Shown: piece by piece, positions 35,204 through 40,882 of the stretch
How positions within the stretch are numbered: the first letter of the stretch is position 1
How the letters are laid out: the number at the start of each line of letters is the position of its first letter
DNA from: Acidobacteriota bacterium
Lineage (GTDB): Bacteria > Acidobacteriota > UBA890 > WLXD01
Length of the DNA stretch: 64,000 nucleotides
Direction of reading: 5' to 3'
Assembly (NCBI GenBank): GCA_963666215.2
Contig: CAXWPL010000004.1
Location: 864,001 to 928,000, forward strand
Notes under the pieces: model-generated
Told to the model about the DNA's origin: nothing
Databases searched by the model: none
What the model saw: the letters and a program-made list of their open reading frames with translations, nothing else
Program-made: the position numbers and the translations under genes

Positions 35204-35228
35204 CGTTGGGCGCGATGCCGACGGTGTT

Positions 35229-35693
35229 TTGAAGGCCGGACAGCTTGAGCTGCCGGATTCGTACCGCTACGGCGTGCTGTTGAGTGCGGATTTCTGGGAG
35301 TTCCTGCAGGAGACACGAAACCAGCTCGTGGTGCCACTGGAGCTCCTCAGGCTCTTCGTGGATCGTCCGACTGGCTGGGACTACCTGTGCTTCCTCGTGG
35401 CTCGCTGTGGGGCTGCCAGGCGGGCGTCGAAGGTGCCGCACGAGGCGTTGGTGTCACTCTTCAGGGACACAGAGAAGCAGAGCGATCGAAACATCATCCG
35501 ACGACTCAAGCGCTACCACGCTGAGATCATGGTGGCCACGGGAGGAAGACTCCGCGCTGAGCTCGTCGAGGATGGCCACTTCCCTGCTGCGGGGCGCGGA
35601 AGGCCGCGCAAACGTTGGGCGCTTGTCGTGCGACCGAGCAAGTCGGTGATTGTTGCCGGTAAGGTGATCGATCTTGAGGTGCCGGCAGAGTAG
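35229..35693 (+). pseudogene. repA: C-terminal half of a plasmid replication protein (RepA_C/IncW-like)
   Basis: Begins exactly at the left TTGAA with no RBS; VLLSADFWEFL..VVPLELLR..WDYLCFL; in frame with the right-end half on circularisation. Confidence 0.7.
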
Positions 35694-35792
35694 GAAGGCC
35701 ACACTTCCCTTACTACTAACGGCAACTTGCCGGATTTTCCGATAACTTGCTCGTCGTTCCGTCGAAAAAAGCCGAGTAGAGAACGTCCTATG

Positions 35793-35830
35793 GGTATAAG
35801 AGTCTACGGAAACTCTTAGACTCTTATACC
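35793..35830. repeat. Palindromic box R1 (8-mer array)
   Basis: GGTATAAGAGTCTA-cggaaactct-TAGACTCTTATACC, perfect 14-bp arms. Confidence 0.9.
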
Positions 35831-36018
35831 AAAAGAGCTGTTGGGTTGAGCTCTTCGCCGGCAGCGGACCGCGTTTATGTGCCGCAAAAACGCGCCTAGA
35901 GGGCGCTCAGAGAACGCGACCCTGAAGGATGTGGTTTTCCTTGTTCTTAGGGCTACGGGCTCTTCTCGAGGCTCTTAGGAGCTCTGCGGGCATGCCTGGT
36001 TCGGAACACTCCCCTACC

Positions 36019-36795
36019 TCACGCTGCTTTGGCGAGCCTTTCGGTGGCGTACTGCTTCATCCGATACGTGAAGACTCGCGCGGGATGCTTTGCCCCATCG
36101 GCTTTGATCTCGGAGAGCGCCTGGAAGATGACGTTGTGCGGCACCTTCGACGCGACCAGATAATAGAACTTGTTTGACTTGTGATCGCCGAACTCAGCGA
36201 GGATGTCGTCGGTCATGAGTTTGGTGGCAGCTTCTTCTTCGTCGAGATCCGGGAGCGCCTTAAGGGGGTTTTTGCTTTTACCGTTGGGTTGGTAGCTAAC
36301 GGTATTAGTTTCTCTATTCACTTCTCTATTACTACTACCCTTCTCAGGGGTGGTCTGATCACGGACGCCTTGTTGAGCGTCGGTTGCGGGAGCCGAGAAG
36401 CGACTCTCGAGGTAGAACCACTCCTTGCGGCGAGAGCCGTCCTGCTGCTCGCTGATGTCAACCCACTCGCCGAGCACGAAGATGGTCTCGCGGCCGGTTC
36501 GAAGGCGCTTGATCACCCGAAGCTCCTCAAGAGCTTTCAGGTAGTCGGTCACTCGATTGACCGTCTTGATGCCTAGAGTCGCGGCCAACCGTTGTCGGCC
36601 AACAGCTGCAACGAGTTTGCGTTCCTGGTGGTAGAAATCCTGCAGCTGGAGACGGTGGGGGCCACCACGCCAAACGAACCTTCGGAGTGCCAGATACACG
36701 GCAAACTCGGGACGACGGAGGAACTCCTGAAAATCAGGGTCGTCGAGGAGCGCGAAGTCGAGCATCAGGAATTGTCGATTGAAGTTCTCCGTCAT
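36019..36795 (-). CDS. Winged-HTH protein, possible second replication initiator
   Basis: FAVYLAL...RQRLAATLGIKTVNRVTDYLKALEELRVI HTH, low-complexity linker and small helical C-domain; lies next to the par genes. Confidence 0.6.
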   Translation of the reverse strand: MTENFNRQFLMLDFALLDDPDFQEFLRRPEFAVYLALRRFVWRGGPHRLQLQDFYHQERKLVAAVGRQRLAATLGIKTVNRVTDYLKALEELRVIKRLRTGRETIFVLGEWVDISEQQDGSRRKEWFYLESRFSAPATDAQQGVRDQTTPEKGSSNREVNRETNTVSYQPNGKSKNPLKALPDLDEEEAATKLMTDDILAEFGDHKSNKFYYLVASKVPHNVIFQALSEIKADGAKHPARVFTYRMKQYATERLAKAA

Positions 36796-36867
36796 AGGAA
36801 CACCCGCAGTATGGGGCGTAATCGCAGGTTTGGCGAGGTTCGGGGTGTGGATAGCAACCGGCCTACA

Positions 36868-36904
36868 GGTATAAGAGTCTACGGAAACTCTCGGACTCTT
36901 ATCC
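36868..36904. repeat. Palindromic box R2
   Basis: GGTATAAGAGTCTACGGAAACTCTCGGACTCTTATCC. Confidence 0.88.
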
Positions 36905-37162
36905 GAGCTTTCTGTTGGTATATTTGCTCAGGAGCTCAACGGCGACATCGCGCATTGAGCGGCCTTCTTGAGCCGCCATGACCTTGAGGGCGGCGTGCAA
37001 GTCAGCGGGCAAATCGAAGGTTGCTCGCACCCTACCCGGTGCGGGCTTTTTGCTGCGCGAGGAGGCCGGTGCCTTGTCTGGCGCCGTGGTAGCGGCCTTC
37101 CCTACAAAGGCTGCTTCGTCGAATCCCTTGCGGGCTTTCTTGGTCTTGCGTGGTGATTTCAT
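36899..37162 (-). CDS. ParG/omega-like ribbon-helix-helix centromere-binding protein
   Basis: Flexible N-terminus plus [37 protein letters not shown]-coupled to parA. Confidence 0.8.
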
Positions 37163-38534: not shown

Positions 38535-38758
38535 GAGCGTCGGAGACGTTCAACACTCGCCGTAAACTCGTCGTGGGAAAGACAGTCCTCGGGGCGCTCA
38601 CGTACCTGCTTCATACGCTCGTCAAGGAGCTGCTTCTGTGCATCGCTTAGCTCAAACGAGGGTGGGGGAGACGCACTCTCCCACAAGGCGTGTGCGAGCT
38701 CGAGGCGCTCGTCGACAGGCAGTTTGAGCACTGCTTCTTGTAGGTCTGCTTTTGTCAT
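38531..38758 (-). CDS. Addiction-module antitoxin (TIGR02574-type)
   Basis: LKLPVDERLELAHALWES...LSDAQKQLLDER; overlaps the toxin start. Confidence 0.85.
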   Translation of the reverse strand: MTKADLQEAVLKLPVDERLELAHALWESASPPPSFELSDAQKQLLDERMKQVRERPEDCLSHDEFTASVERLRRS

Positions 38759-38797
38759 GTCTCTACAGTGTACGGGAAATCACGAGGTTGGCAATCG

Positions 38798-38942
38798 GAT
38801 AAGAGTCTACGGAAACTCTTAGACTCTTATACCAAGTACAGACAGCCTACTGTGACGAAATCCATTTCGGCATGGTGATCATGATTGCCGAAATACGCAG
38901 ATAAGAGGATAAGGAGACTCTTATATACTATAATACTCTTAG
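38798..38942. repeat. Palindromic box R5 (38798-38833) and degenerate box R6 (about 38900-38942)
   Basis: GATAAGAGTCTACGGAAACTCTTAGACTCTTATACC, then ataagagg ataaggag actcttat...actcttag. Confidence 0.85.
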
Positions 38943-38950
38943 TACCAAAA

Positions 38951-40130
38951 CGGGGATGTCACAGGCTCCGTTGAAAAAGGGTGACGGTGATCCGACCTCG
39001 ATAGTGTGTCGGGGTCAATCCACTGGCATGGAGGATCACCGTCATGAGCAAGAGTCGCAGAACAGAGACAAGTAGGAAAGCGGAGCGCCAAGAGAACCCG
39101 CTCCTGGAGGCAGTGGTAGCGGCGCGATCGGATCTACGAGCGCTGGTCATGGACGCGGGCTTCGGGGTGTTGGGTTCGCTGCTGGAAGAAGACCGGGCGG
39201 AGCTCTGCGGAGAGCGCTACGCGCGGTCACAGCAGCGGCGGGCGTACCGACACGGCTACGACGAGGGCTCGCTGGTGATGGGCGGCCGGCGGGTCAAGGT
39301 ACGCAAGCCGCGGGCTCGGAGCGTCGATGGCCAAGAGCTGCCGCTGCTGGTGATCGACGGCACGCACATGGGCAAGCACTTGTTGGTGATCGCCATGGGC
39401 ATCGACGCGGACGGCGTCAAGCATGTGCTGGGTGTCGTAGAGGGCACCACGGAGAGCTCCCACGTGTGCCGGTCGCTGCTGCGGCAGTTGATCGAGCGCG
39501 GCATGCCCGTCGAACGGGCGCGGTTGGTGGTAATCGATGGCTCCAAGGGCCTCCGTAAAGCAGTGCGCGACACGTTCGGCGAGTGGGCCCTGATCCAGCG
39601 CTGCCGTGTCCACAAGATCAAGAATGTATTGGAGCATCTGCCAGGGCATATCCGGCCCTGGTTCGCAGCCAAGATCCGCAAGGCGTGGAAGGCGGAGACG
39701 GCCACGGCAGCGACCAAGCAGCTCGACGCCGTGGTCAAGGAGCTGGAGACCGATCACCCCGGTGCAGCGGCCTCGCTCAGAGAAGGAATGCAAGAGACGC
39801 TCACCGTCACTCGGCTCCGAGTTCAGGGGCCGCTGCTTCGGACGTTACGTTCAACGAATACGATCGAGAACCTGAACGGGACGATCAAACACGTCAGCCG
39901 CAACGTAAAGCGGTGGCGCTCCGGGAGCATGATCGTTCGATGGGCGGTTACTGCACTCATCGAGGCCGAGAGCAAGTTCCGGAGGGTTCGTGGCTACCGC
40001 GACATCGCCAAGCTCGATGCCGCACTCAACACCGCCGTCGACGTTCCCCTTGAGCAGGAGCGCCGTACTGCGTAACAATCCCCAACCACTTCACCGTCGC
40101 CTTAGTTCAACGGACGGTGGGACATCCCCG
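38951..40130 (+). mobile_element. IS256-family element, internally deleted
   Basis: 25-bp imperfect TIRs CGGGGATGTCacaggcTCCGTTGAA / CGGGGATGTCccaccgTCCGTTGAA; no 8-9 bp target duplication. Confidence 0.85.
39044..40075 (+). pseudogene. IS256 (mutator-like) transposase with an apparent in-frame internal deletion
   Basis: IDG, VIDGSKGL, QRCRVHK and STNTIEN motifs; PRARSVDGQELPL runs directly into LVIDG, skipping the usual intervening region. Confidence 0.75.
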
Positions 40131-40320
40131 CGAAGCCTACTACTGCTAGATAACTACTGTTCTTTAGATACTGAAGATACTGTTCTCCGCTGGCGCCCTT
40201 TGAGCTCAACGGGTTGGCGGGAATTACGGGGCCTGATTCACGTACGCAGGGGTATTTTCGGGGCCTGATTCACGTGGAAAACGTGAGCGTCCACAAGGGC
40301 CTGTGGAAAGGTGCTAGCCT
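40131..40320. other. Putative plasmid replication origin
   Basis: AT-rich TACTG-repeat tract at 40138-40196; exact 17-bp iteron-like repeats CGGGGCCTGATTCACGT at 40227 and 40259; immediately upstream of the rep ATG. Confidence 0.65.
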
Positions 40321-40338
40321 GCCGTGCGGGGGTGAGGC

Positions 40339-40855
40339 ATGAGCGACTCGACGGATCGCATACTGCGGCGGATCTCGAAGCTCGCGGGCTTCGCGGAGCG
40401 GCTTGAGGAGGAGCGACGCATCGAGGTTATCCGCCTCGCGCGCGTGCTCGCGATCGCGGGGCTGCCGAAGCGGCAGGTGGACGCGAGCCATCTGAGCCGG
40501 ACGCTGCGTGTCGGAGCAGCGACGTGGCTTCGGGTCACATACTCGGTCGACGAAGGAGCTCCCCTACCCTACGGCGCTGATCGCTTTGTGCTCGCCGGTA
40601 TCCAACACCTGGCGCTCGAGCAAGATTCGCGGACGGTGCTGTTCAACCGGGTTGGCGAGCTGCTACACACGTTTGGCTTGAGCCAGGACGGACGCTCGGA
40701 CTCCTGCGGCAGCGATTCAAGCGGATCGCGGGGCTGTCGATCAGGCTGCGGTTTGGTGGGTCGCTGGCTGAGCTCGATGATGCCGACGTCGGTGAGCAGC
40801 TCTTCATCATCCGGCGGTACTCCCTGCCGACAGGTCGAGAGCTTCGGCTCTTGAA
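40339..40855 (+). pseudogene. repA: N-terminal half of the plasmid replication protein (RepA_C/IncW-like), with a frameshift near 40697
   Basis: GLPKR, LPYGADRFVL and SRTVLF..ELLHTFGL; continues in the -1 frame as LLRQRFKRIAGLSIRL...RELRL up to TTGAA. Confidence 0.75.
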
Positions 40856-40882
40856 CACCGTCGGCCATGGCACTACCGCTCG

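Follow-up and report, generated by a model that had tools for sequence, protein, structure and literature searches.

Within a 64,000-nt stretch of the genome of a marine Acidobacteriota bacterium (contig CAXWPL010000004.1, positions 864,001 to 928,000; hereafter the window, with position 1 as its first letter), we observe a 5,622-bp island that is bounded by the pentamer TTGAA and carries the two halves of a plasmid replication initiator (rep) gene at its two ends. We consider it likely that this arrangement goes back to a single reciprocal illegitimate crossover between a small plasmid and the chromosome, the product of which is now decaying, and that it represents an accident rather than a built-in switch.

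A small plasmid between two convergent chromosomal genes

The 5,622-bp stretch between the VKOR-family gene on the left (34766-35203, plus strand; PF07884, E 4.3e-16) and the convergent PAP2-family gene on the right (40883-41770, minus strand; PF14378, E 5.3e-17) is an insertion. An orthologue of the PAP2 gene occurs in all ten other genomes of the same family, and in nine of them it directly adjoins a convergent VKOR gene, the tenth (G001) having no VKOR match in its 3.9-kb locus. Among nine related loci in which the spacer between the two genes was measured, six have none (0 nt), and the other three have one of 11, 29 and 56 nt, respectively. With the exception of the insertion sequence (IS), none of the element genes has a second copy in the host genome, and the G+C content of the element (0.52-0.60) is lower than that of the flanks (0.62-0.68).

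Both junctions are seen in other assemblies. Contigs of X13 cross the left (15,012 bp) and the right junction (4,170 bp) with 0 differences to the window, a 964-bp contig of run X1, from a different strain, spans the right junction, and the database proteins P0003 and P0111 are N-terminal halves of the initiator that read across the right junction into the flank (...RELRLLNTVGHGTT...). Misassembly of the two junctions, a concern raised in a first-pass annotation of the window, is unlikely. Between strains, single nucleotide polymorphisms fall within the element and in the flanks alike, which fits vertical descent of an old insertion. One contig of X2/X3 matches 34831-35228, that is most of VKOR plus 25 nt, and departs from the window precisely where the element begins on the left. 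Neither the 30 nt with which this contig continues nor its 30-nt lead-in occurs in the host genome at up to 6 mismatches; the contig may come from a relative without the element, or with another neighbour at this place.

The island extends from 35229 to 40850 when one core copy is included. The first-pass annotation had placed TTGAA at both edges of a 5622-bp circle, and both the length and the positions hold: the left copy, which also provides the TTG start of the C-terminal rep open reading frame (ORF), lies at 35229-35233, and the right copy at 40851-40855. Around these copies we find the two arms of a chromosomal hairpin that was split by the insertion. The left arm, GCCGACGGTGTT (35217-35228), is the perfect reverse complement of the right arm, AACACCGTCGGC (40854-40865), the first two letters of which are the last two of the right core. 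The inferred pre-insertion spacer of 57 nt folds at -29.2 kcal/mol (z -3.5 versus shuffles) with TTG as its loop, and the crossover point is the tip of this perfect 12-bp hairpin. The arm has five other exact matches in the genome, and no similar hairpin was found; a genomic repeat family was rejected because the five matches lie in unrelated sequence.

Beside the core, the plasmid and chromosomal partners agree at 5/30 and 11/30 bases, which is chance level, leaving a common part of 5 bp only. The circle has 11 occurrences of TTGAA or its complement, and about a fifth of it is rep, so that a hit within rep needs no special explanation. A target duplication made purely by a transposase was rejected as the source of the two copies, as the island ends are unlike IS ends and the rep frame needs one TTGAA, which means that the core pre-existed in the plasmid and was not generated by the insertion.

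The two ends of the island are halves of one initiator gene

The C-terminal half of the gene, which encodes an RPA-like replication initiator, occupies 35229-35693 on the plus strand (154 codons) and opens with TTG AAG GCC GGA CAG. The N-terminal half, at 40339-40853 on the same strand, ends with CTT CGG CTC TTG; it is read in frame 1 up to about 40695 and in frame 3 from there to the TTG at 40851-40853. All three pieces align in order to P0004, a full-length relative of 329 aa, residues 11-126 corresponding to 40339-40695 (frame 1), residues 123-177 to the frame-3 piece ending at 40853, and residues 181-319 to 35229-35693, the last with 71% identity. The C-half likewise matches the C-terminal part of the full-length representatives, and the N-part is found in 53 longer proteins, most of them of 310-350 aa, full-length relatives measuring about 310-330 aa.

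In the multiple alignment at the join, the window reads LPTGRELRLL followed by KAGQLELP, where relatives have LPTSKELKTEKAGQLALP, with an equal number of residues and no indel. The split position corresponds to a variable linker between two conserved blocks of the initiator. These alignments show that both halves are parts of one gene, and an exact reversal would restore a single reading frame. The first-pass annotation had proposed that the halves join into one rep frame on one strand, and the full-length relatives, which are collinear with the joined halves without a gap, bear this out. We also observe a perfect 18-nt inverted repeat (35424-35441 and 36136-36153), at which the rep C-half and the DnaD-like ORF described below both encode ASKVPH. 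A match of this length is unexpected by chance in 5.6 kb and may reflect a small gene conversion or a common motif.

Both halves have accumulated lesions

The change of frame in the N-half had been read as a 1-nt frameshift near 40697. It is instead a 4-nt deletion behind 40685, where the X1 contig retains GAAC, restoring SQNGRTLGLL, identical to P0003. The X13 contigs carry the same 4-nt deletion, again with 0 differences. On the other side of the island, P0113, P0114 and the window's own C-half protein all begin with MKAGQLE at the left junction.

The state of the two halves varies among strains. In one strain both halves are open (P0003 and P0113, encoded on a single 316,919-bp contig), and P0111 has an intact N-half. 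A different N-half frameshift is present in P0110, after ...RLRFGG. The 39,782-bp contig that encodes P0110 also encodes P0114, in which the frame changes close to the C-terminus, and in P0115 the C-half is damaged close to its 5' end. Counting the window deletion, four different lesions are found among strains of the same insertion. Different frameshifts in both halves across strains indicate that the halves are not being kept for rejoining. The insertion is a decaying remnant, and the split is confined to this lineage.

Relatives keep rep whole, and no recombinase is found in the island

Related loci were collected by scanning one genome per species (185,579 species), which gave 9 loci, two of them on one repeated contig, and from metagenome contigs, which gave 8. 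The rep linker is unbroken in all 17; in two of them the gene is cut by a contig end, upstream of the linker only. The first-pass annotation had suggested looking for relatives split at the same codon, and none exists among these loci. TTGAA is present at the matching codon in none of the 8 relatives whose DNA was examined, and the DNA there is not conserved.

One relative, L018, lies on a 6.78-Mb chromosome, where a whole rep gene is followed 1.3 kb downstream by a tyrosine integrase gene (PF00589, E 2.2e-20) abutting ftsY and other core genes. With its integrase at the edge of the element by ftsY and its rep gene whole, L018 seems to integrate at an integrase-adjacent site and not in rep. 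Another tyrosine integrase (G000:C2:22147-23094) is 49% identical to that of L018; its surroundings share nothing else with L018 or with the island.

A Pfam scan of the 9 ORFs of the element revealed no recombinase or relaxase domain, the serine-recombinase and relaxase families not having been searched separately, and none of the 16 PF00589 matches of the genome falls in the element (C4:899229-904855). The earlier statement that neither a recombinase nor a relaxase is encoded inside thus stands for tyrosine recombinases, whereas for serine recombinases and relaxases it stands only as far as this general scan reaches. Of the 5.6 kb, about 4.7 kb are taken up by the genes described here and the IS, and the remainder consists of repeats, which leaves no room for a hidden recombinase. 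Neither the circle joint (40855 to 35229) nor the empty site (35228 to 40856) occurs in the contigs of X13, X1, X2 and X3, bearing in mind that contigs drop rare forms; three listed joints with sides of 21-23 letters were taken as spurious. In the portion of the literature that our search returned, there was no paper on an attachment site inside a plasmid rep gene.

We also considered whether the C-terminal domain occurs separately. A profile built from three short C-domain proteins found matches in 19 of the 401 genomes searched from this phylum, almost always within open frames of 288-410 aa, indicating that the domain is normally part of full-length proteins. Two short frames (in G366 and G392) have no N-domain within about 8 kb, and they are only 19-26% identical.

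A small family of initiators remotely related to RPA

Judged from profile comparisons, the initiator family is a remote relative of RPA (PF10134). No Pfam or NCBIfam family exceeds its threshold on either rep half, and no Pfam, NCBIfam or PHROG family does so on the full-length relatives. The first-pass annotation had expected a RepA_C (PF04796) match spanning the join, but RepA_C is absent from the matches of both halves and of 23 full-length members, even at E up to 1. RPA is the commonest weak match, being found below threshold in 7 of the 23 members (best E 0.0011); its gathering threshold of 27 bits is reached by no member, the window halves give no match, and the host genome has no PF10134 match at E up to 0.01. 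The alignment of the 23 members (A2) was compared by hhalign with an alignment of 8 PF10134-matching ORFs of the same phylum, 5 of which are over the Pfam cut-off (A4). The two match with a probability of 96.7% and E 4e-10 over 229 columns (query 64-321) that extend to either side of the split.

This is a small family: a search of 1.84 billion sequences gave 54 representatives at E up to 0.001. A tblastn search with P0004 gave no match in 72,556 catalogued plasmids, the family profile gives nothing below E 0.33 among the sequences of solved structures, and the initiator has no match among the PHROGs. The metagenome-assembled genomes (MAGs) in which members occur are labelled Vicinamibacterales, Thermoanaerobaculia, Gammaproteobacteria and Candidatus Multivoradales.

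Upstream of the N-half, an origin-like region (40131-40275, plus strand) consists of an A+T-rich stretch followed by two iterons, CGGGGCCTGATTCACGT (40219-40243 and 40251-40275), that stand 71 and 103 nt upstream of the rep start. The same iteron core is found upstream of rep in 4 of the 14 relatives checked, with three copies in L015, two in L016, and four each in L018 and L028, and is not found in the 10 other loci. The core, (C)T[CG]ATTCACG with a spacing of 22-33 nt, is kept upstream of rep in relatives labelled as different orders (in L018 at 9833-9931), and it could help to locate the origins of this plasmid family.

A ParA gene adjoins rep in L015, L016, L017, L019/L020 and L023. L019 and L020 lie on one 29,517-bp contig, which repeats itself head to tail every 18.7 kb or so, at 99.9% identity over 10.8 kb, and carries an intact rep gene; the repeat suggests that it is probably a circular plasmid of about 18.7 kb, though the record says chromosome. 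In X13 and X1, loose ends at 40585 and 40625 reveal a second member of the rep family, with flanking letters unlike those of the window, in the same samples. Other elements of the family thus live in that community.

Origin of the insertion

We hypothesize that a small iteron-type plasmid, of about 4.4 kb without the IS, entered the chromosome once. It would have carried the RPA-like initiator with its iterons, the DnaD-like gene, parA with a ribbon-helix-helix (RHH) gene, an ArsR-type regulator and a ParE toxin-antitoxin pair, with most of its promoters presumably behind one common palindromic operator. A TTGAA within the codons of the interdomain linker of the initiator would have crossed over with the TTGAA at the tip of the 12-bp hairpin, in an exchange that apparently cost neither side a base. 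Since the crossover cut rep in two, the integrated origin would have been dead, which may explain why the integrant was tolerated and may have favoured a hit in rep, and the toxin-antitoxin pair may have aided retention. Vertical inheritance would have followed, with strain-specific frameshifts and a later IS insertion. Palindromes are well known as hot spots of illegitimate exchange; replication forks stall at them, and their tips are cut. How the strands were exchanged, whether through a break at the hairpin, stalling there or a topoisomerase-type reaction, is our inference, as are the selective explanations given above.

Several observations weigh against an accident of this kind. Most illegitimate events are less tidy than an exchange without loss that falls precisely on a perfect palindrome's loop, and inverted arms of 10-12 bp around a short centre have the geometry of a site-specific reaction. 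The lesions in P0110, P0114 and P0115 are possibly assembly errors, only the window deletion being confirmed in independent contigs. The IS in the island lacks a target duplication, and adjoining DNA, perhaps including a recombinase gene, may have been deleted. Finally, P0096, a protein of 132 aa that is encoded on a 17,141-bp contig and is distantly related to the C-half, starts with MAGQL, one codon from the split. Its closest full-length relatives (L055 and L056) have both domains, and P0096 itself may represent another case of a split gene, a gene that is broken, or a domain that stands alone.

The first-pass annotation had proposed that an attP within rep makes integration the off-switch for replication, and had mentioned a one-off microhomology event as the alternative. 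In the programmed case, a recombinase acting in trans, encoded by the host or by another element, would join an attP in the rep linker to the hairpin, and excision would restore rep. The exact reciprocal exchange at the centre of a perfect 27-bp palindrome, the 16 tyrosine-recombinase matches elsewhere in the genome, the start of P0096 and the one strain with both halves open on one contig (P0003 and P0113) would all agree with it. Nevertheless, rep is unsplit in 17/17 related loci, TTGAA stands at the codon in 0/8 relatives, the partners are alike over 5 bp only, the hairpin is unique in the genome, independent frameshifts occur in both halves among strains, and the chromosomal relative L018 keeps rep whole beside an integrase. 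This makes programmed integration highly improbable, and the one-off event fits better. In its most elaborate form, the linker would be a real attachment site for a trans-acting recombinase, the target a terminator-like hairpin, and the plasmid would park in a silenced state and return by exact excision, the decayed copies being old ones and P0096 a second case; we regard this as scarcely plausible.

It is also possible, but unlikely, that a recombinase once encoded by the element made the insertion and that its gene was later lost by a deletion beside the IS256-family copy. In favour of this, the island IS is internally deleted and lacks the 5-6-bp duplication that flanks 8 of the 23 paired copies, and in L018 a tyrosine integrase is encoded 1.3 kb away from rep. 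However, 15 of the 23 paired copies also lack the duplication, so that its absence is common here, the L018 integrase lies at the element edge beside ftsY with rep whole, so that its site is not in rep, and no relative has a site in rep. An assembly artefact, in which a free plasmid was wrongly joined to a chromosomal contig, has a next to negligible probability. The genome is MAG-like (5 contigs, 91.7% complete), but X13 contigs cross both junctions, the X1 contig of a different strain crosses the right one, the reading frames of P0003 and P0111 run out of rep into the flank, and P0003 shares its 316,919-bp contig with P0113. A single illegitimate crossover remains our preferred explanation.

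Other genes and repeats of the element

All the remaining plasmid genes lie on the minus strand. Next to the rep C-half is an ORF of 258 aa (36019-36795), single-copy in the genome, which weakly resembles a DnaD-like helicase loader (phrog_186, E 2.4e-4) and has no Pfam or NCBIfam match over threshold. The following two genes form one operon and encode a small ParA-type partition ATPase of 215 aa (37159-37806; PF13614, E 5.8e-22; PF01656, E 1.9e-20) and, downstream of it, an RHH protein similar to ParG/omega-type partners (36899-37162; PF22513, 27.6 bits versus a cut-off of 27; Arc-like PHROGs), which is 46% identical to the product of a gene adjoining rep in L015. An ArsR/SmtB-type winged-helix regulator of 101 aa is encoded at 37847-38152 (PF12840, E 3.8e-10; NF033788 below its cut-off). 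A type II toxin-antitoxin module follows, with a ParE-family toxin (38241-38534; PF05016, 37 bits versus a cut-off of 23) and an antitoxin classed as an addiction module component (38531-38758; PF09720, 46.1 bits versus a cut-off of 23.3). The two genes overlap at 38531-38534 and qualify as a ParE-type pair.

An operator-like palindrome of about 34 bp (ATAAGAGTCTA..AACTCTTAGACTCTTAT) is repeated along the element. Copy 1 (35793-35830) lies downstream of the rep C-half and copy 2 (36869-36904) upstream of the DnaD-like ORF. Copy 3 (37817-37860) overlaps a promoter-like site upstream of parA (minus strand, 37837-37808), whereas copies 4 (38189-38224) and 5 (38799-38833) stand beside such sites upstream of the ArsR gene (minus strand, 38186-38159) and of the antitoxin gene (minus strand, 38794-38767), respectively, and a partial sixth copy is found at 38902-38925. 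The minus strand has 3 promoter-like sites, compared with 1.2 ± 0.8 in shuffles, and three palindrome copies touch all 3. The set looks like a single-repressor regulon, or like the centromere sites of a very small plasmid.

Between this module and the origin-like region lies an IS256-family insertion sequence of 1,180 bp (38951-40130, plus strand), with terminal inverted repeats of 40 nt and the features required for an IS256 assignment (NF033543, 191.3 bits versus 150; PF00872, E 3.6e-37). The first-pass annotation had not mentioned it. It has an in-frame internal deletion of 231 bp and no target duplication. The genome contains 22 other paired copies, 21 of them of 1,410-1,412 bp and one of 1,449 bp, so that this 1,411-bp element has at least 23 paired copies, and about 35 matches altogether. 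Some flanks recur at different copies (the same left flank is seen at C1:81762 and C3:12885), and these recurrent flanks, together with the small number of duplications, point to frequent recombination between IS copies.

Comparison with known systems

The island provides a base-exact record of a small plasmid becoming chromosomal DNA without a recombinase of its own. It also records the aftermath, with an origin silenced by the cut itself, vertical inheritance, and independent frameshifts and an IS insertion accumulating. Moreover, it brings out a branch of RPA-like initiators that is small and as yet unnamed, and whose iteron core is conserved. If programmed integration were true, it would be a new way of coupling integration to replication control; the present evidence speaks against it.

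In type Ib partition systems, such as TP228 ParFG and pSM19035 delta/omega, a small ParA acts with an RHH partner that also represses several promoters. The element resembles them in having a 215-aa ParA gene and an RHH gene in one operon and one palindrome repeated at several promoters, but the protein predicted to bind the palindrome could here be either the RHH protein or the ArsR-type regulator. A second parallel concerns the fate of the plasmid. In PMC3031569, an example of chance chromosomal integration, a laboratory E. coli plasmid carrying an addiction module was reportedly found in the chromosome when its replication was blocked, and the title ties the movement to IS elements. In both cases a plasmid with post-segregational killing turns up in the chromosome once replication fails, whereas the junctions described here are not at an IS.

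With the RPA iteron plasmids (PF10134), the element shares a profile-profile match over both initiator halves, direct repeats just upstream of rep and an adjoining partition module. The present family is nevertheless below the Pfam threshold, small, and without a match in the plasmid catalogue.

Three known systems resemble the insertion itself. IMEX are integrase-less elements that use the host XerCD at dif, and like them the island has no recombinase of its own and a palindromic chromosomal target. Here, however, the hairpin that served as the target lies between convergent genes, the spacer of which measures only 0-56 nt in relatives, and the element has no matching site beyond 5 bp. In archaeal elements of the SSV1/pNOB8 type, attP lies inside the integrase gene, so that, as in the island, a gene on which the element depends is cut by integration and would be made whole again by exact excision. 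The split gene there is the recombinase and the arrangement is family-wide, whereas here it is the initiator, no recombinase was found and no relative is split. In some mycobacteriophages with integration-dependent immunity, attP lies inside the repressor gene, and integration cuts a regulatory or maintenance gene and alters its product, as it does here. In those phages the integrase adjoins the site and both forms of the product work, whereas the halves of the initiator are frameshifted in several strains.

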